Shown: piece by piece, positions 44,572 to 52,138 of the stretch | Numbering within the stretch: position 1 is the first letter of the stretch | How the letters are laid out: each line of letters begins with the position of its first letter | Source of the DNA: Nitrospirota bacterium | Lineage (GTDB): Bacteria; Nitrospirota; Nitrospiria; Nitrospirales; Nitrospiraceae | Reading direction: 5' to 3' | DNA: 64,000 nucleotides | Assembly: GCA_963701855.1 (NCBI GenBank) | Contig: CAVPBK010000006.1 | Coordinates: 128,001-192,000 of the forward strand | Made by a program: the position numbers and the translations under genes | Notes under the pieces: generated by a model | What the model was told of the DNA's origin: nothing | The model's database searches: none | Seen by the model: only the letters and a program-made list of their open reading frames with translations

Positions 44572-44811
44572 ATGCACGATCTGACCTGCATGATCAAAGG
44601 CTGCCAAGCAAGAGTCTATGCTCCAGCTGGCACGCATAGCATCTGCCGGGAACACTTCCTCAGCTATCTTACCTGGCGCCGCCGCAAAGGCCCGCAGATG
44701 TTCATGAAGTATGCCGGGATGACGATGGAAGAACGAGACCCCTACGTCGCCGAGTGGGCCAACACCATCCGAGTAGAAGAAGCCCCCACCGCCTCAGCAC
44801 CAAACACCTAA
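44572..44811 (+). CDS. small hypothetical protein with C-x4-C...C-x2-H
   Basis: RBS ggag; 79 aa; its 3' end recurs downstream. Confidence 0.7.
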   Translation: MHDLTCMIKGCQARVYAPAGTHSICREHFLSYLTWRRRKGPQMFMKYAGMTMEERDPYVAEWANTIRVEEAPTASAPNT

Positions 44812-44860
44812 CGTTCCACGCCCTCGCACAAGAAAATGGTTCCTGCCACCGTATTCCTAC
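44745..44860 (+). repeat. direct repeat of the 3' end of the 79-aa gene, copy 1
   Basis: Near-identical to 47327-47443, weaker to 46641-46717, partial at 46111-46145. Confidence 0.9.
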
Positions 44861-45086
44861 CCCCGAAGGTCTCTCGGCATACCTGATACACGTAGTCCCG
44901 CGAGGCCCCCGAAGAACTATGCCGGTCATGGGAAGTGCGGACGGGGCGCTTGCCGATCATGATCGACGGTGCGGACGTTCCTCAGTTGACACGTTTCTTT
45001 CTCCAAAGTAGCCTACCCCATATCCTGGCGAGCTCCATATATAAGGCCACACGATCTAATGGAGTGTTGGAGAAAGGAGAGAAATA

Positions 45087-45407
45087 ATGAATAGATTGGG
45101 GTGGATGTCCTCCATCATCGTGGTAATGATGCTACTTCTGGCCGGATGCTTTTTGTCTGTGGAACAGCGCTGGGAAAAGATTGACGAGCAGATGCAGCAG
45201 GAGATCGGTGTGAAGACCAAAGACTACTATGTCAGTGAATGGGGAAACCCGGCGAAGCGAGTCAAAGCGGCGGACGGCGGATCGATCTGGACGTGGGAAT
45301 TCCGGGCGTATGGCGGCAGGGAGGGCTGGAATAAGATTCTCATCTTTACGCCTGATGGGGTGTTGAAGGAATTTCGTCGGGAATACTGGCCTAAGGAATA
45401 TCAGTGA
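45087..45407 (+). CDS. small lipoprotein (BamE/SmpA-like pattern)
   Basis: Lipobox LAGC; IG.TK....WG.P....IWTWE...F..DG.L. Confidence 0.7.
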   Translation: MNRLGWMSSIIVVMMLLLAGCFLSVEQRWEKIDEQMQQEIGVKTKDYYVSEWGNPAKRVKAADGGSIWTWEFRAYGGREGWNKILIFTPDGVLKEFRREYWPKEYQ

Positions 45408-45585
45408 CTCGGGGAAGACATCGGGGTGGTAGTCAGGACTCGCATCCTACATTGTACGGCGCGTGGCGGACCGGTTCCTTCTCCCCACTCTGACACAACG
45501 ATTGACCAGGCCAACCCTCAGCTTGAAGCGTTCCCTCACGACGGTTCAAAGTTAGAGTGTGCGCCAATATCGGATGAGAATAATT

Positions 45586-45888
45586 ATGGCGCGATTGTGG
45601 GTGTTAGTCTGTCTCAGTGTCTTAGTAATCAGCTGTCGCTCTTGGAGTATTCAGCATCTCGATGAGGACACGGGAAGAGCTACGCAAGATGAGATCAGGA
45701 AAAAGCTTGGACCGCCTCTGGAGGAGCGGACACTGAGCACCGGCGAGTCAATATGGCACTATCGAATCGAGAAATATAGCACCGTATCAAGGGCCACCCT
45801 TTGCAGTATCTACGATCTAACGTTTGACGCTCAGCGGGTGCTACAGCAATGGAAGAATGAGGATTGTCAAAGTGGAGAACAGAAATGA
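45586..45888 (+). CDS. small lipoprotein (BamE/SmpA-like pattern)
   Basis: Lipobox VISC; TQDEIRKKLGPP...WHY...LTFD..RVL. Confidence 0.65.
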   Translation: MARLWVLVCLSVLVISCRSWSIQHLDEDTGRATQDEIRKKLGPPLEERTLSTGESIWHYRIEKYSTVSRATLCSIYDLTFDAQRVLQQWKNEDCQSGEQK

Positions 45889-46213
45889 GAAGAAGAGCCC
45901 GGTCTAGCAATCCAACATTTCTCAGCGCGTGGCGTGATCGCTACCGCTTCCTATATTGTCACTCATGTAGTCAGGTGTCCAGGGGTGAAGAAGCAACAAT
46001 AGAGAATCCTGGGCATTGTACTTCTCAAGATTGGCTTGGGCTATCGTGATGTCCGGCAGGGAAAGGGAGGACGATTCAGAGGCAGTCGATTTAGTTTATT
46101 TCGTTCTCTGACAAGAATACGGTTCCTGCCACCGTATTCCTGCCCAGAAAAGTAGCCTGCCTCATTTTTCCCTCCCTTTTCCCCTCCTCGATTTTGATAT
46201 AATTCTTCGTAAC

Positions 46214-46612: not shown

Positions 46613-46640
46613 TACGTGCACTGCCCGCTGGCATTCAGAC

Positions 46641-46717
46641 TGGGCCAGCACCATCCGCGTAGAAGAAGCCTCAACCACCGCAGCACCGAAATCCTAATGT
46701 CCCACGCCGTCACACAG
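46641..46717 (+). repeat. 3'-end repeat, copy 2 (diverged)
   Basis: tgggccagcaccatccgcgtagaagaagcc...cctaatgtcccacgcc. Confidence 0.75.
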
Positions 46718-46835
46718 ACACTTCCTGCGCTTATAGGGCCACCCCACAAGCCAAAGCAAACTGGTCGGCACTCCTCCACCATGCTACAATGCCGACACAA
46801 AAACCAGTGCCCCTCTTCTGAAGATGGAGCCGACT

Positions 46836-47066
46836 ATGGCAACAGATACAAGAACGACGGTCTATCTGAAGCGAAAAGTGTACCGAGCTCTGAAAGCCAA
46901 AGCAGCTTCGACAGATCGAACCGTCTCAGACCTCATCAATGCCGCGGTGCTGGAAGCAATGCGGGAAGATGAGATAGATCGAGCCGCTGTCGCCGCACGA
47001 CGCAAAGAGCCCTCACGTCCGTTTGAGAAGGTGATCGAGGACTTGAAGCGTGACAGGCGCATATAG
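46836..47066 (+). CDS. CopG/RHH antitoxin
   Basis: RTTVYL...ALK.KAA....VSDLIN.A; overlaps a relE-like start. Confidence 0.8.
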   Translation: MATDTRTTVYLKRKVYRALKAKAASTDRTVSDLINAAVLEAMREDEIDRAAVAARRKEPSRPFEKVIEDLKRDRRI

Positions 47067-47309
47067 ACTCCTCCTTAAGAAATCCGCAGAACGTGAGCTG
47101 CGGAAAATCCCCAAAGCAGATCTTCAACGAATTACCGAACGGATCAACGAACTTGCGGCAGCCCCACGGCCTCCAGTAGCGAGAAACTGACAGGGCAGGA
47201 CTCATATCGCATCCGACAAGGCGATTATCGCGTCGTCTATACCGATAAACAATGACGAGCAACTATTGAGATCATCAAGATAGGGCACCACAGAGAAGTC
47301 TATCGCTGA
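47050..47309 (+). pseudogene. RelE/StbE family toxin, frameshifted
   Basis: YRLLLKKSAERELRKIP...PRP / SEKLTGQDSYRIRQGDYRVVY / IIKIGHHREVYR split by frameshifts. Confidence 0.85.
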
Positions 47310-47326: not shown

Positions 47327-47443
47327 CGTCGCCGAGTGGGCCAACACCATCCGAGTAGAAGAAACCCCCACCACCGCAGCACCAATACCTAACGTTCCAC
47401 GCCATCACACAAGAAAACGGTTCCTGCCACCGTATTCCTGCCC
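47327..47443 (+). repeat. 3'-end repeat, copy 3
   Basis: Aligns with 44745-44860 with few substitutions and one indel. Confidence 0.9.
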
Positions 47444-47490
47444 GGGTCTGCTTCACAGCCGAATCATGTCACAACTGAAGGACTGGCAAT

Positions 47491-47548
47491 GCCTAACGAC
47501 TGGGTTCAGTGACGCACGGAGGCCGTCGACTAGAACTATGGGTTAGGC
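47491..47548 (-). mobile_element. integron attC site
   Basis: Minus strand GCCTAAC-ccata-GTTCtAGTcGACG-loop-CGTCACTGAAC-ccagtc-GTTAGGC: R''/R' boxes, 5 and 6 nt spacers, two extrahelical bases; the gene stop TAA lies in R''. Confidence 0.85.
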
Positions 47549-48517
47549 ATCGACATATATCTCTGCCCGTCGTCGCGGGTTCACAGCGCACTTGACGCCT
47601 ACTTCATAGGCAGGCTGATTAGCTACCACTCGGTCGACGCTAACACCCATGACCTGCAAAGATACTATTGGCTGCGACATACAATAATTCGAGCCGAGCA
47701 AATGAACATGCATCCCAAGTTGTACTTCGGTACCGTTATCCAGCTGGGCAATGAAAGCACCTGCGCTGGCGAACGTTTTCGTCACCAGTCCAATTCGCTT
47801 TGTCTTACCAGCCTTTATGCGTTGCATCAGCAGATTCTTGGAAAAGTATGCTGCAAGCGCCCTAACAATTGCCTGTATGAGCGCGCAGTACCTCGCAAGA
47901 TTATCTTTACCTTCAAGTGTTTCCAGCACGCCGTGTGCGGCTTCATTGCGAAGCTGAACAAAGGCCCGGAGCTCGGCATCAAGCTGTTCAACAATTGCGG
48001 CCTGCTCTTGGTATAGAGCAATTATCTCTTCACTGCAGTTGAGCCAACCGCGCAGCTCCTTGAGGTTCACGCGTGAAACGAGCTTTTCAACAACGCTTAG
48101 TCGGAGATTGTGATCGTGGCGCGTGAGCGCTTCAGTAATGAATCTATATTTGTCAATACTCGTCAACGCCTCGTGATACCAAAGAATGACATTCTCGTGA
48201 GCCAGATGGCTATAACGTTCTTCGTCGAGCTTGCTGAGGACATGAGAGACCCCAACTCTATATTCCTTCTTTAGGCTATCAGAAAGATCAGAATAAGGAA
48301 TGAGCTCAGGAATCGAATCCAGGAAGTCAGAAATAATGGACTCGACAAAGCGCTCGTAAATAGCATAAAGCCGAGTCACACAGGAGGTTACCGCATAAAC
48401 TTTAATGGCACTTCGACGCTCAGTTGGCTGGGCGCGAATGAAGTCATCATGCGTTGTAATGAGAGTCTCGACCACATGAATCTGATCTATAGCATTCGCC
48501 TCCAGGCCTCCAAACAT
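47543..48517 (-). CDS. HEPN-domain putative RNase (MAE_28990-like) with C-terminal beta-barrel
   Basis: LYAIYERFVE and RNEAAHG (RxxxxH); coupled to a DUF262 gene. Confidence 0.8.
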   Translation of the reverse strand: MFGGLEANAIDQIHVVETLITTHDDFIRAQPTERRSAIKVYAVTSCVTRLYAIYERFVESIISDFLDSIPELIPYSDLSDSLKKEYRVGVSHVLSKLDEERYSHLAHENVILWYHEALTSIDKYRFITEALTRHDHNLRLSVVEKLVSRVNLKELRGWLNCSEEIIALYQEQAAIVEQLDAELRAFVQLRNEAAHGVLETLEGKDNLARYCALIQAIVRALAAYFSKNLLMQRIKAGKTKRIGLVTKTFASAGAFIAQLDNGTEVQLGMHVHLLGSNYCMSQPIVSLQVMGVSVDRVVANQPAYEVGVKCAVNPRRRAEIYVDA

Positions 48518-48520
48518 GGC

Positions 48521-49702
48521 TCACGCCTCAAGGGCCGTACGGAACAGCGTTCGGAATAAGCCGATGCGGTTCTCGAGATCCTTCTTGGTGCTGGCGCGTC
48601 CAGTTATTGCAGAGACCCCTTCGCGCACAATAAGCTCTATCGTCTTTGCCACGATGGTGTCGCGGCGCTCGATCAATCTCGGAAAATCTGGGACGAACTC
48701 CGACAACGGCACCATGATGGCGTCATACATGCCCTTTGATGCCTTCCCAGACCATTCGCCGTTCTCGTGGACTTTGAAGACGTGTTTTCCAAAGATGGAA
48801 TGCGCACAGGCAAGAGTTGATTCAAAGAGGGTGGTGAAAAATGCGATGTCTTCGTCGTTAAAGGCCTTACTGCGAATCATGTACAAATCAAGGAATCCTT
48901 GGATTCCGTACTTGTAGTGATCCATATGTCGGAGCGCAAAGAATCGGAGGACAACTTCGATATCCTCCATAGTCTTAAAGAATGCCGCCTTAAATATCGG
49001 CCGCTTGTGATTGGTCAGTTCTTCCGGATCAAAATGCGGCAGACCCCATATGTCACGAAAAAGGTCGCCTCGCGCCAGCTCGTAGAGCATTTTGTTGAAC
49101 GGACCATGACTTAATGAGTTTCTGATTTCTTGGCGCTCAAGCTTGACGCCACCCGTGTTTAATCGTTCAAACACAAGTTGGCGTAAGAAAACGGCATCCT
49201 CCTCGTCGGGAGCGGACTCCTTCAGGAGAACGATTGAAGAGATTGAGCGGCGATCAAGTCCGGCTCGGATTTTATTCGGAAGTTCTAAATATGTCAGGCC
49301 GTTAAGCTCTGGCCAGAGATCGAGCCCTTTCAGAGCGAATCGATTCTTGTAGAAATCCGCAATCGCGGTTATCCGCTGTTGCCCATCCATTACTTCGTAT
49401 GAATTGAAGGCGCGCTCATACAAGAATATGGGAGGAACTGGGATGTTTATGATGAAGGACTCGATCAACTTTGACTGTCGTTCTTCGTCCCAACGTGAGC
49501 GACGTTGATAGAAGGGGCGGACCTCCATGTACTCGGCGCGGCCCAAGGCTTCCACGAAGTTTGGAAGCTTTTCCCGATTCATTTCAGTAACGATTCGCTG
49601 TTCGCCGCGTTCGTATTTTTCATTAATCTCAGATGCAGTTGATGAACCCTTTCGGTCTTTGGGCGGAATGGCCCACATACCCCGTTCAGTCTTTGAGTAC
49701 AT
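48521..49702 (-). CDS. DUF262 (ParB/Srx-like, GmrS-like) protein
   Basis: YQRRSRW, LIESFIINIPVPPIF, DGQQR, FERLNTGGVKL. Confidence 0.9.
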   Translation of the reverse strand: MYSKTERGMWAIPPKDRKGSSTASEINEKYERGEQRIVTEMNREKLPNFVEALGRAEYMEVRPFYQRRSRWDEERQSKLIESFIINIPVPPIFLYERAFNSYEVMDGQQRITAIADFYKNRFALKGLDLWPELNGLTYLELPNKIRAGLDRRSISSIVLLKESAPDEEDAVFLRQLVFERLNTGGVKLERQEIRNSLSHGPFNKMLYELARGDLFRDIWGLPHFDPEELTNHKRPIFKAAFFKTMEDIEVVLRFFALRHMDHYKYGIQGFLDLYMIRSKAFNDEDIAFFTTLFESTLACAHSIFGKHVFKVHENGEWSGKASKGMYDAIMVPLSEFVPDFPRLIERRDTIVAKTIELIVREGVSAITGRASTKKDLENRIGLFRTLFRTALEA

Positions 49703-49951
49703 GTTGTCCCTACGCCTCGGTTTCTATTTCAGAGGGGTACCGCAATGTGGCTTTGCCGATGGCTACCAGTAAGTCTGCTTCATGCCGACGTGCAGCAGAG
49801 CACGTCGGCATGAAAACTCTGATGGAAGACAAGTCTACTTGAAAATCCAATCCTTCTTCAATGCAGCGCCCTGTTCCACTGGCCTGACAGACTACTAATC
49901 CTATAGTCTATCCAGCATCAACCCCAAGCATATCTGGCCAACGAGTCACAG

Positions 49952-50100
49952 TCAGAGGCGGTCTGCGAGGCTGCCCACTCCATGTCCGCCTCGATTGAAG
50001 ACATGTGTATAGATCATCGTCTACTGACGTACTGATGCTCAAGCAGCTCCTGAATCGTCCGAATATCATGCCGGTCTTCGAGCAAATAGGTGGCGAAGGG
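49952..50100 (-). pseudogene. intI: integron integrase 3' remnant
   Basis: PFATYLLEDRHDIRTIQELLEHQYVS/TMIYTHVFNRGGHGVGSLADRL* matches the IntI C-terminus HSFATHLLE.GYDIRTIQELLGH.DV.TTMIYTHVLNRGG.GV.SP; frameshifted. Confidence 0.88.
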
Positions 50101-50113
50101 AGCAAACAGGGGG

Positions 50114-50347
50114 TCATTGATTCAGGCGGGCACGGACATTCTCAAAGACACCTTTGCCGGACACCGGCTTCACTTTTCCCTCGCGGACTTCGCGATGGCG
50201 TCTTTGCGCTTCAAGTCGCCATGCACTCTCGACGTCAACGTCAGCAGGACCATCGAGTTGAACTATCAGAGCCCGCAGCAACTCGGTCTTATCTTCGAAG
50301 CTCAGAGACCGAATCCTTGCTTCAATCTCAGCGACATCGGTTGACAC
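50114..50347 (-). CDS. addiction-module antitoxin (TIGR02574-like)
   Basis: LS.EDK.EL...L...LD......ESAW..EAQRR..E...GKVKPV. Confidence 0.8.
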   Translation of the reverse strand: MSTDVAEIEARIRSLSFEDKTELLRALIVQLDGPADVDVESAWRLEAQRRHREVREGKVKPVSGKGVFENVRARLNQ

Positions 50348-50412
50348 AGTGACCTCCGTGCTGCCGACTACAAGACGCGAAGGCGGGGTCATGCCTCCTT
50401 TTAAACTTTCCC

Positions 50413-50847
50413 TCAAAGATGCTGAATATCGACATCTCCCCATTTCCCCCGCAAATACTCCGCAACAAGCCGACGGTGACAATGGTGGGGAGTCGGCTCG
50501 CTGCAAAGTAAGCACGCACCGGCGACGAGATCCTTATCGATGGATGTTTCTATTCGGCGCTCCGCCATCAATGCAAAAAACTGCTTCTCGTAGGTTTCCC
50601 AGTCGCCACCGTTCTTCTTATATGCGTCCAGCATTGCTTGAGTTGGCGCTAATGCTGGCAGATGGACGTAGTCAATGTGGCCAACTTCGCGCAGGAAGAA
50701 CCTAAGGTCATCCTTCTTCGTGAACCCTGCCAACTGGGAAATATTGTTTAGCCTCGTGTCCACCACACGCTGAAGGCCGGGCTGTTTTAGGCGGGCAAAG
50801 AACTGCTCTGCATTTTTCTTTGTGAAACCAATGGTAAAAACCTTCAT
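50413..50847 (-). CDS. DUF488 family protein
   Basis: FTIGF, VDTR, LLCSE..HHCHRRLVAE. Confidence 0.88.
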   Translation of the reverse strand: MKVFTIGFTKKNAEQFFARLKQPGLQRVVDTRLNNISQLAGFTKKDDLRFFLREVGHIDYVHLPALAPTQAMLDAYKKNGGDWETYEKQFFALMAERRIETSIDKDLVAGACLLCSEPTPHHCHRRLVAEYLRGKWGDVDIQHL

Positions 50848-51449
50848 GAAGCGGATGCTCTCTCAAGCTGCTTCATATTTTCGTCCTGATACGCGACTCG
50901 CTCGCCTTGGATCGCATACGCTTCCGAAACGAATTCGTCCCGCTGTTTAAACATGTCTCCTTCCGGCAGCTTGCACACGCCAAGAAGACGAGATTCCAGC
51001 GTTCTGTGATCTTCAAGTGAGCCATCAGCATGAATATGGGTTACTTCAAGACCTGTCTCATGAAGTTTGCGTGCGACTAGCAAAGTTCTATGGCATTCCA
51101 GCGGGTCCTTTTCTGCACACATTAGAGCGATGCAATACCGCTGCATTCCCTCAATGACGTGCCTTACTCCCTCAGCGAATTGGGGCTGCCTAGCCAAACA
51201 GTCGTATTGAACCTTGCCTTGTCTATAACAGGCCGGGTCTTCACTCCTGGCACCTAGCTCTTTACCGAGAAAAACGTATGCAATACCCGCCTGCGTCAAA
51301 GCAGCCTGTAGCGGTTCGCGAGAGTATTGCGGGACATAGCGGCTGTAAGGATGCGACCGCACGTCGCCAACGGCAGTGATGCCATGTCGATGAAGAAGCG
51401 CGATGAAGGCTTCTATTGGGTGATTTGAATGGCCAATAGTAAAAATCAT
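50844..51449 (-). CDS. DUF488 family protein
   Basis: FTIGHSN, DVRSHPYS, ELGAR, LMCAEKDPLECHR. Confidence 0.9.
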   Translation of the reverse strand: MIFTIGHSNHPIEAFIALLHRHGITAVGDVRSHPYSRYVPQYSREPLQAALTQAGIAYVFLGKELGARSEDPACYRQGKVQYDCLARQPQFAEGVRHVIEGMQRYCIALMCAEKDPLECHRTLLVARKLHETGLEVTHIHADGSLEDHRTLESRLLGVCKLPEGDMFKQRDEFVSEAYAIQGERVAYQDENMKQLERASAS

Positions 51450-51460
51450 CTGATTCACTG

Positions 51461-52138
51461 CTACCGTTCTGCGTGCAAGATTCCCGCGACAAGCTTGTAA
51501 AAGTAGCCTTGATATGAGTCCCCAAGACTGACGCATAGGACAGGCTTGGCGATGTCATAGTGACCATCGGCCTGTCCGAGATATTTTCGCTCTATTGTCG
51601 GATCGGTTACATCCATGCGATACATCGAACCTTGGTAGCTGAACTCGCCCCTCACAGCCCGCTTGGAATCAGGATACTCCGGAGCTTTACGACCGACTAG
51701 CAGCCGAAGACGAGCGACCGAGATGAGGTAGAGTGATGAGCCGTTTTCGCTCCCAATGGCCACACGGTTGTTGAGGCCAGCGTAGCTACCTTCTCCGGTG
51801 CCCCAGAGCGTATCCGGTTGGTCGAGCCATCCAGAAATGTCTTTCCATGCCAGGGTTCCCTGCGGAGCCCAGTAGTATCCGGGGTCAATTACATGGTTTT
51901 CGCGTTGATGCGGCAAGGGTTGATGGCTTTCGCAGGGGACAAAGACGATGTCGAGCAGCTGCGGGTCTCGTCCATCCTCGTATCGCCTTTCTTCCTCTGA
52001 GATTTCATGTGTAGGGCGCGTGCTTACTGGGCGCACCCATTCTCCTGCAGTGCCATCATGCCACTCCTTTCCAGCGATGCACCGCCCAGAGGTCTTGCGA
52101 GAATTTGCGAAGCAGACAATGGTCTTGCCGTACTTCAT
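51461..52138 (-). CDS. dual OB-fold-like domain protein
   Basis: CFANSRK..GRCIAG...WVRPV, HQRENH, VTDP, CVSLG..Y...YKLVAG; family recalled, not computed. Confidence 0.7.
   Translation of the reverse strand: MKYGKTIVCFANSRKTSGRCIAGKEWHDGTAGEWVRPVSTRPTHEISEEERRYEDGRDPQLLDIVFVPCESHQPLPHQRENHVIDPGYYWAPQGTLAWKDISGWLDQPDTLWGTGEGSYAGLNNRVAIGSENGSSLYLISVARLRLLVGRKAPEYPDSKRAVRGEFSYQGSMYRMDVTDPTIERKYLGQADGHYDIAKPVLCVSLGDSYQGYFYKLVAGILHAER

Follow-up and report, generated by a model that had tools for sequence, protein, structure and literature searches.

The locus consists of two co-oriented genes on the minus strand of the window, by which we mean the whole 64,000-nt stretch of a Nitrospirota contig that was analyzed. 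Gene A (48521–49702, minus strand) encodes a ParB-like DUF262 protein of 393 aa whose C-terminal region is helical and resembles NsnA-C and ParBDB; gene B (47543–48517, minus strand), which follows directly downstream, encodes a HEPN protein of 324 aa that ends in a beta-barrel. Reading of the sequence places the stop codon of A (TGA) at 48521–48523 and the start codon of B (ATG) at 48515–48517, leaving a gap of 3 nt and confirming the tight coupling described in an earlier note on this DNA. The stop codon of B lies within the first box of an attC-like imperfect palindrome of 58 nt (47491–47548, minus strand; GCCTAAC...GTTAGGC). Upstream of gene A is a frameshifted C-terminal remnant of a tyrosine recombinase that is most similar to integron integrases (49955–50121, minus strand), separated from the gene by a perfect 15-bp inverted repeat (49779–49814, strand not applicable), whose arms are 100% complementary and enclose a loop of 6 nt according to a repeat search.

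The DUF262 assignment of the earlier note is borne out by a match of A to the Pfam family GmrSD_N/DUF262 (PF03235; E 1.2e-24) and by the presence of the DGQQR motif (A residues 106–110; 49373–49387, minus strand, by sequence reading), whose residues D106, G107, Q108, Q109, and R110 are all invariant among 36 aligned homologs. Two further sequences in the translation, QRRSRW and FERLN, correspond to motifs I and III of DUF262 in the nomenclature of PMC12065111. GmrSD_N is the sole Pfam match of A at E values up to 1, and neither a DUF1524/HNH domain nor any other recognized nuclease domain was detected in the protein. A search of PDB sequences gave no match at E values up to 0.1, and NCBIfam yielded nothing for A or B except a sub-threshold match to DGQHR.

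The N-terminal part of B (residues 1–235; 47813–48517, minus strand) is a predicted helical HEPN domain, and the protein passes two Pfam models, HEPN_RiboL-PSP (PF18735; E 1.1e-12, 48.7 bits, cut-off 28.4) and HEPN_MAE_28990 (PF18737; E 1.8e-10, 41.8 bits, cut-off 26.8). Its catalytic motif RNEAAH (B residues 190–195; 47933–47950, minus strand, by sequence reading) is intact, as the earlier note had stated, and R190, N191, and H195 are invariant among 40 aligned homologs. The 78 homologs of B are mostly about 324 aa long. In the AF2 model of B (pLDDT 92.2), the best structural matches of the helical domain are solved HEPN-MNT toxins. A Foldseek search with the whole protein was discarded for the helical part, as it returned only barrel matches, among them long alignments with EF-Tu (rmsd 16–19) that are meaningless for this domain. 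With its intact RNxxxH site, B is presumably an HEPN RNase.

C-terminal barrel of the HEPN protein

The last ~86 residues of B (residues 239–324; 47546–47803, minus strand) are predicted with high confidence to form a beta-barrel of the translation-factor type. Structure comparison ranks the C-terminal domain of U32 peptidases (PDB 4he6) as its nearest relative, and domain II of EF-Tu, IF2, and eIF5B is likewise among the best matches. Predicted fold and structural comparison thus support the earlier recognition of an EF-Tu domain II/U32-like barrel at the C terminus. B itself matches neither Peptidase_U32_C nor GTP_EFTU_D2 in Pfam, and the barrel as a query falls into no Pfam family; matches were obtained for two of 38 members of the B family with Peptidase_U32_C (best E 0.0078) and for one of 38 with GTP_EFTU_D2 (E 0.033). 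A profile built from the barrel retrieves, at E values below 1e-11, proteins that pass GTP_EFTU_D2 (32.9–37.0 bits, cut-off 30.3) and a protein that passes Peptidase_U32_C (43.9 bits, cut-off 28.2), and its matches among PDB chain sequences are at chance level (E 0.53 or worse). In U32 proteins and translation GTPases, the barrel is joined to the U32 catalytic domain or a GTPase, whereas that of B is joined to a putative nuclease.

The barrel profile covers 1137 clusters at 50% identity. Among its best 150 matches, 69 of the 71 full-length proteins have the same HEPN-barrel architecture; an R[ND]xxxH motif is present in 69 of these 71 full-length representatives. The profile also retrieves one TIR-barrel protein as well as proteins made up of tandem barrels that stand alone.

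In EF-Tu, IF2, and SelB, domain II contacts the acceptor end of tRNA, and TrhP and RlhA, the characterized members of the U32 family, are RNA hydroxylases. The barrel of B would most plausibly be a substrate-docking module that brings the acceptor end of tRNA or another translation-associated RNA to the active site, and we tentatively consider such an RNA-targeting role possible. It is also conceivable, again with a probability clearly short of even, that the barrel is a regulatory or protein-binding domain, which would auto-inhibit the HEPN site, contact A, or recognize a phage or host protein as a trigger. This would agree with the wide range of settings in which the fold contacts proteins and ligands and with the presence of non-RNA proteins among the structural matches; the TIR-domain and tandem-barrel proteins are as compatible with a portable sensor or adaptor as with a targeting module. 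The mean net charge of the barrel, about 0 across the family, is also compatible with such a role; it is +5 in the present B, and the charge analysis is uninformative in that it gives no clear nucleic-acid-binding signature. A regulatory role is less easily reconciled with the kinship of the barrel to the C-terminal domain of U32 proteins, among them the RNA hydroxylases TrhP and RlhA, and with the tRNA contacts of domain II.

Distribution and possible integron context

The gene pair is strictly conserved. A homolog of A is located immediately upstream of the B relative, on the same strand, in 79 of the 80 loci that encode one, and in the single exception the B relative starts at nt 226 of its contig. 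The two genes are separated by 6 nt or less in 47 of the 79 loci. The pair spans several phyla, with most relatives in cyanobacteria, and in the loci examined, neither a third gene conserved across phyla nor a conserved methylase was found beside it. In cyanobacteria, it is locally syntenic with housekeeping genes such as that for threonine dehydratase (19 loci), which could reflect vertical inheritance rather than island-hopping.

In the present lineage, the pair behaves as accessory DNA. A search of 40 relatives, of which 24 belong to the same genus and 16 to the same order, did not find it, and its GC content (0.49–0.50) differs from that of the genome (0.556). The three neighboring genes at 50413–52138 match all three proteins of the PADLOC defense candidate PDC-M45 (E 5e-73 to 2e-87), and the surroundings also contain an RHH antitoxin (46824–47066) and an Unstab_antitox ORF (50114–50515). 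It is highly improbable that the pair has a housekeeping role in RNA processing or in a chromosome-related function and resembles a defense system merely by association: its wide occurrence and its synteny in filamentous cyanobacteria would suit such a role, but the lack of matches in the 40 relatives of this genome, the atypical GC content, the location between mobile-element remnants and a defense candidate, and the validation of a homologous architecture as phage defense all speak against it.

The 58-nt site at the end of gene B has outer boxes of the form RYYYAAC/GTTRRRY, inner paired boxes, and one unpaired base. Folded as DNA, it reaches –11.0 kcal/mol; it is not followed by a run of T and is absent from the list produced by the terminator scan. 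The site was called as attC-like with a simple custom script and by sequence reading rather than with the covariance model of IntegronFinder. The same script detected no second attC-like site between 43 and 54 kb of the window, and perfect box pairs occur 21 times in the 4.3-Mb genome, including the present site, without clustering. By the same criteria, the end of gene B carries such a site in none of the 13 related loci scanned; in two beta-proteobacterial relatives (L010 and L011), the stop codon of B likewise falls within GCCTAAC, and the hairpin that follows is weaker. Direct repeats of ~110 nt at 44752, 46638, and 47334 were rejected as attC sites; each of them repeats the 3' terminus of a small ORF together with an 8-bp hairpin.

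The integrase remnant, which comprises about 57 codons, lies ~250 nt upstream of gene A and in the same orientation. Its first frame (50017–50121) matches model positions 267–291 of the integron integrase family TIGR02249 (E 1.7e-5), with XerC/XerD nearly tied, and the second (49955–50020) matches only TIGR02249 (E 9e-4; positions 294–315 of 315), so that the last 22 residues of the remnant match IntI alone. The genome contains no intact IntI (best full-length match 80.8 bits, cut-off 265), and no IntI above cut-off was found in the genomes of the five closest related loci examined. An upstream cassette boundary was not found either: reading of the interval from the remnant to gene A showed no GTTRRRY core, and attI sites are not recognizable from sequence alone. 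The earlier description of the locus as an integron cassette finds some support in the attC-like site spanning the stop codon of B and the IntI-like remnant upstream, but an intact integrase and an upstream site were not found. Because there is neither an intact IntI nor a second attC, the pair is at best a single cassette of a dead or decayed integron. Integron cassettes have recently been reported to store anti-phage systems, and the locus fits these reports; it would be a tidy example of a defense cassette that has outlasted its decaying integron, with the integrase oriented like the cassette.

Relationship to known defense systems

Two characterized systems are relevant for comparison: PD-T4-2 from E. 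coli ECOR65 (Vassallo et al. 2022) and Menshen (NsnABC; Millman 2022; Li et al. 2025, PMC12065111). The combination of DUF262 and HEPN (PF03235 and PF18735) is the architecture given for PD-T4-2 in Table S1 of PMC9519451 and in PMC10952713. According to PMC9519451, PD-T4-2 protects its native host ECOR65 as well as K-12 from T4, and the tables of that paper list an H127A construct of PD-T4-2B. Moreover, a 2013 table by Anantharaman et al. (PMC3710099) already includes HEPN-ParB operons for the RiboL-PSP and MAE_28990 families. The remark in the earlier note that the fusion was not recognized as a named system is therefore not supported.

The E. coli PD-T4-2 locus (PF03235, 89.5 bits; PF18735, 31.4 bits with a cut-off of 28.4; intergenic gap of 4 nt) has the same organization as the present pair: two co-oriented, tightly coupled genes, with the DUF262 gene first, followed by a PF18735 HEPN gene with an RN.AAH motif. 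PD-T4-2A is homologous to A (BLASTP: 29% identity over 251 aa, E 9e-24), and both pairs are located in mobile or accessory DNA, in the case of PD-T4-2 in a P4-like element next to ssrA. By contrast, PD-T4-2B has only 167 aa and consists of a single HEPN domain without a barrel, whereas the 324-aa B has a longer helical domain and the EF-Tu/U32-type barrel. In a search of the genome, the PD-T4-2_B model of PADLOC reaches B only at the motif (E 0.78, 10.8 bits), and hhalign aligns B with PD-T4-2B at E 0.056, covering 42 columns in the vicinity of the motif. Judged by these comparisons, B is not an ortholog of PD-T4-2B, and any transfer of function from PD-T4-2 consequently rests mainly on A and the shared Pfam family. 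The match to a characterized system, which the earlier note had named as a refuting outcome, weakens the claim of novelty but does not abolish it, because B differs from PD-T4-2B, which has no barrel. The pair is a longer variant of a known DUF262 and HEPN anti-phage pair, not a wholly new system.

The PADLOC analysis suggested in the earlier note had a divided outcome. A matches NsnA (E 5.1e-65, 218 bits; A residues 57–391, model positions 63–383 of 385) better than PD-T4-2_A (E 4.9e-32, 109 bits), whereas B, which gave no match to PADLOC models at E values up to 1, is left without a name, and the PD-T4-2_B model misses it. NsnA resembles A in the near full-length match, in having all three motifs of DUF262, and in the helical region at the C terminus, which Li et al. 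(PMC12065111) name ParBDB. Menshen, however, comprises the ATPase NsnB and the effector NsnC; the present locus has neither, but a HEPN gene after A, followed by the attC-like site. B matches neither NsnB nor NsnC in PADLOC, and the word HEPN is absent from the main text of PMC12065111.

Among the HEPN families treated in PMC3710099, B passes the Pfam models of both MAE_28990 and RiboL-PSP. For these two families, the available portion of that paper identifies no C-terminal translation-factor barrel; it notes, in the sister family MAE_18760, a "novel beta rich domain"; the beta-strand domain listed for that family is N-terminal. DARNA (bioRxiv 10.64898/2026.02.22.705581) was rejected as a match; as far as the available text of the preprint shows, it is a different, single-protein HEPN system.

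GmrSD, SspE, and BrxU share with A a DUF262 NTPase module with DGQQR, followed by a helical DNA-binding region. They are type IV enzymes with a DUF262-DUF1524 architecture, whereas A has no DUF1524/HNH domain and the effector is a separate RNase-type protein. The action of DUF262 proteins in these restriction enzymes (PMC10952713) is compatible with a two-pronged, restriction-like system, in which A would nick or cut (modified) phage DNA and the HEPN RNase would be released as an independent second line when the first is blocked, comparable to PrrC/PrrI. In PMC3710099, the partner is termed a "ParB nuclease", and the linkages between HEPN and restriction-modification are interpreted as multi-pronged defense. 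Such a system is nevertheless unlikely, given that A has no recognized nuclease domain and that none of the methylases near the pair is conserved among the loci examined.

A toxin-antitoxin-like addiction module, in which the DUF262 protein would neutralize the HEPN toxin and stabilize the cassette or island without sensing phages, must also be weighed. HEPN toxins with a neutralizing partner encoded upstream are well known, and several features of the locus point in this direction: the best structural matches of the helical domain (HEPN-MNT toxins), the neutralizer-first gene order and tight coupling, and the location in a decayed integron beside toxin-antitoxin remnants, namely the RHH antitoxin and the Unstab_antitox ORF. 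For the related MAE_18760 family, a ParA-type ATPase has been proposed as the antitoxin in PMC3710099. We still regard an addiction module as improbable because A is an enzyme-like protein of 393 aa with invariant NTPase motifs, which is unlike a simple antitoxin, and PD-T4-2, a homologous pair, was isolated as a phage-defense system and validated in that role. Toxin-antitoxin behavior and abortive defense are not mutually exclusive.

Proposed function and significance

On balance, we favor the interpretation that the pair is a self-contained two-gene anti-phage module of DUF262 and HEPN proteins that was acquired horizontally and lies in a small defense island as the sole cassette of a decayed integron. 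A would be a ParB-like NTPase of the DUF262 family whose C-terminal DNA-binding region is of the NsnA type. In line with what has been proposed for NsnA, and by comparison with GmrSD, SspE, and BrxU, it would sense phage DNA and switch on B by NTP hydrolysis. B would be the effector, and its activation would lead to a shutdown of translation and abortive infection. This flow from sensor to effector, from A to B, appears somewhat more probable than its absence.

A bolder and rather doubtful extension is that the barrel is a true homolog of domain II of EF-Tu/IF2 that was recruited to aim an immune RNase, docking its HEPN active site onto the (aminoacyl-)tRNA acceptor end or onto the ribosomal region where factors bind. 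In this scenario, cleavage of the translation machinery itself would be set off by a ParB-like NTPase that senses DNA, and the portable barrel would serve also other effectors.

The longer HEPN-barrel variant is abundant and occurs in several phyla, and its effector is not named by the models of PADLOC 2.0.0. A barrel of the EF-Tu domain II/U32-C type suggests, in a concrete and testable way, what the RNase may cut and how it may be aimed. If true, there would be a large defense family, extending over the 1137 clusters of the barrel profile and unnamed here by PADLOC 2.0.0, that chooses its targets via a translation-factor domain.

A conserved DUF262–HEPN gene pair related to PD-T4-2

The open reading frames of A (48521–49702, minus strand; 393 aa), a DUF262/ParB-like gene, and B (47543–48517, minus strand; 324 aa), a HEPN gene, are separated by only 3 nt between the TGA of A (48521–48523, minus strand) and the ATG of B (48515–48517, minus strand), with GAGG just 5' of the latter. 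A matches Pfam GmrSD_N/DUF262 (E = 1.2e-24) and contains all three DUF262 motifs as defined in the Menshen paper (QRRSRW, DGQQR, and FERLN; PMC12065111); residues D106, G107, Q108, Q109, and R110 are invariant among 36 aligned homologs. B exceeds the Pfam cut-offs for HEPN_RiboL-PSP (48.7 bits) and HEPN_MAE_28990 (41.8 bits), and R190, N191, and H195 of its RNEAAH motif (47933–47950, minus strand) are invariant among 40 homologs. The domain identities are clear and the catalytic motifs conserved in both proteins, confirming the coupled genes and the intact HEPN motif described in the earlier note.

The pairing of A and B is obligatory. A word-indexed search recovered 78 homologs of B, mostly 322–338 aa long, with full query coverage and identities down to 41%, and 114 stretches among one-genome-per-species contigs encode a relative of B. 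Among the best 80 of these, an A homolog (43–84% identity) lies directly upstream on the same strand in 79; the single locus without it begins 226 nt from the end of its contig. The gap between the genes, measured with a nearest-ATG heuristic, is at most 6 nt in 47 of the 79 loci, and A is truncated or split in four (L049, L058, L066, and L072). The hosts of these 80 loci are chiefly filamentous cyanobacteria but also include beta-proteobacteria, Bacteroidota, Photobacterium, Desulfovibrio, alpha-proteobacteria, and a MAG of Armatimonadota. Clustering of three flanking ORFs per side revealed no partner common to several phyla; recurring neighbors are housekeeping genes common to related cyanobacteria.

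The system, in which the earlier note did not recognize a named one, is not of an unnamed kind: it is a new, longer variant of the validated architecture of PD-T4-2, for which Table S1 of Vassallo et al. 2022 (PMC9519451) gives "DUF262, HEPN" and a review (PMC10952713) gives PF18735. Plaquing of T4 increases after deletion of PD-T4-2 in ECOR65, and the pair is protective in K-12 (PMC9519451). In a complete E. coli genome, where it was traced via a published primer arm, PD-T4-2 consists of a 375-aa DUF262 protein followed after 4 nt by a 167-aa HEPN protein, which pass PF03235 and PF18735. At this locus (L092; NZ_CP013025.1, 3550901–3556950), the pair lies in a P4-like satellite with ogr/Delta, psu, and an integrase, inserted beside ssrA; a 50-nt PD-T4-2 query had matches, each of at least 99% identity, in 17 of 5426 complete E. 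coli genomes. A shares 29% identity over 251 residues with PD-T4-2A (E = 9e-24), whereas the likeness of B (324 aa) to the shorter PD-T4-2B (167 aa) is confined to the surroundings of RN.AAH (hhalign E = 0.056; PADLOC PD-T4-2_B model E = 0.78). The PADLOC check proposed earlier put a name to A (NsnA, E = 5.1e-65; more weakly PD-T4-2_A, E = 4.9e-32) but yielded no meaningful match for B. CoCoNuT systems, for which RNA targeting is predicted, provide a related precedent.

The C-terminal barrel and a possible mode of action

The AlphaFold2 model of B (pLDDT 92.2; 40-sequence alignment) comprises helices up to residue 235 and strands at 239–323; residues 233–324, modeled separately on 38 sequences from related loci, form a barrel with a pLDDT of 95.8. 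Its top PDB match in Foldseek is the C-terminal domain of U32 peptidases (4he6/4he5; E = 7e-5, TM 0.70–0.80), followed by domain II of EF-Tu, IF2/eIF5B, and eEF1A. At the sequence level, the barrel of B itself matches no Pfam family, and weak matches to Peptidase_U32_C and GTP_EFTU_D2 occur in just two and one of 38 barrel members, respectively. A barrel profile searched against 1.84 billion representatives matched 1137 proteins (E up to 0.001), the best 150 of which include a few non-HEPN proteins, some above Pfam thresholds. Because P0174, P0228, and P0236 pass the threshold of GTP_EFTU_D2, and P0228 also that of Peptidase_U32_C, the barrel is joined by sequence to both the EF-Tu-type and the U32-type families. 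Together with the fold, this bridge bears out the EF-Tu domain II/U32-like barrel that had been proposed from a sequence pattern. P0174 and P0228 consist of two or three barrels and are stand-alone proteins; in P0236, a partial TIR_2 domain precedes the barrels.

Among the same best 150 of 1137 matches, 69 of the 71 proteins of at least 300 aa share the HEPN domain of B and its motif; the barrel is therefore a fixed feature of the HEPN family of B. The 79 shorter proteins, 40 of which keep part of the HEPN domain, are probably fragments. The TIR-domain protein P0236 shows that the barrel also moves between effectors. None of the publications found identifies this barrel, including the available passages of the 2013 HEPN census of Anantharaman et al. 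(PMC3710099).

In GmrSD, SspE, and BrxU, DUF262 serves as a DNA sensor driven by NTP and licenses a nuclease that is either attached to it or its partner (PMC10952713, PMC12065111); the same role has been proposed for NsnA (PMC12065111). HEPN domains are RNases that need no metal and mostly form dimers (bioRxiv 10.64898/2026.02.22.705581). By analogy, A would bind phage DNA, hydrolyze NTP, and then free or activate B, which would in turn cleave cellular or phage RNA, with the barrel providing substrate docking. We slightly favor this sensor-to-effector model; its main alternatives are an addiction role of the pair, as in toxin–antitoxin systems, and a two-pronged restriction of both DNA and RNA. 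That the putative role of the barrel is to target tRNA or the ribosome is less likely than not; it may instead be a regulatory or protein-binding domain, and its presence in the TIR protein P0236 is compatible with a sensing module as well as with a targeting module.

Accessory status and a possible decayed integron

The pair is accessory: a search with B did not recover it from 24 genomes of the same genus or 16 of the same order, and its GC content is 0.49–0.50 vs. 0.556 for the genome. Directly beside it, minus-strand genes at 50413–52138 match all three candidate PDC-M45 proteins (A, B, and C) of PADLOC in full: DuOB (51461–52138; E = 6e-87) and two DUF488 genes (50844–51536, E = 2e-87; 50413–50847, E = 5e-73). 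The neighborhood thus looks like a small defense island. An ORF with an Unstab_antitox domain (50114–50515) overlaps the last PDC-M45 gene.

On the other side, a unit of 80–110 nt, in which the 3'-terminal ~20 codons of a small ORF are joined to a hairpin with an 8-bp stem, is repeated at 44752–44863, 46638–46716, and 47334–47444, with a partial copy at 46086–46146. That small ORF (44572–44811; 79 aa) has no family match. The copies, which are separated by small ORFs, look like repeated duplications of a gene 3' end, as from serial site-specific insertions. Two small ORFs between them (45087–45407, 106 aa; 45559–45888, 109 aa), whose N-termini are hydrophobic and signal-like, belong to no matched family and resemble cassette-style orphan genes. 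The plus-strand region 46824–47300 contains an RHH (CopG-like) antitoxin ORF (46824–47066), followed by what by eye is a putative RelE/ParE-type toxin, interrupted by a stop codon as well as by frameshifts, whose 46-aa ORF has no Pfam match.

Read on the gene strand, an imperfect palindrome of 58 nt (47491–47548) includes the stop codon of B in its first box. Its outer boxes fit RYYYAAC and GTTRRRY, its spacers measure 5–6 nt, its inner boxes pair but leave one base unpaired, and its variable loop is short (DNA folding energy –11.0 kcal/mol), a layout like that of attC sites. No T-run follows, and the palindrome is absent from the terminator-scan list. The remnant of a frameshifted recombinase gene is present some 250 nt upstream of A and in the same orientation: the frame at 50017–50121 best matches the integron-integrase model, nearly tied with XerC/XerD, and that at 49955–50020 (22 residues to the stop) matches only the last 22 positions of the integron-integrase model. 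The remainder of the gene is missing. Integrons whose integrase faces the cassettes, among them those of Treponema, have been described as "inverted". Between the remnant and A, a perfect inverted repeat (49779–49814; 15 bp, 6-nt loop) could be a terminator stem lacking a T-run or a protein-binding site, perhaps of an attI region.

No IntI above the cut-off was found in this genome (97% complete) or in those of the five closest relatives examined, and no second attC-like site within 11 kb around the pair; across the whole genome, the 21 perfect box pairs do not cluster. That a decayed integron left this locus behind as its one surviving cassette, of two genes, has an even or marginally better chance of being correct. 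In two beta-proteobacterial relatives (L010:6950–7060 and L011:2030–2090), the stop codon of B also lies within GCCTAAC, followed by a weaker hairpin. These sites may be decayed attC; if so, they would be a hint of spread as integron cassettes in this branch of the family.
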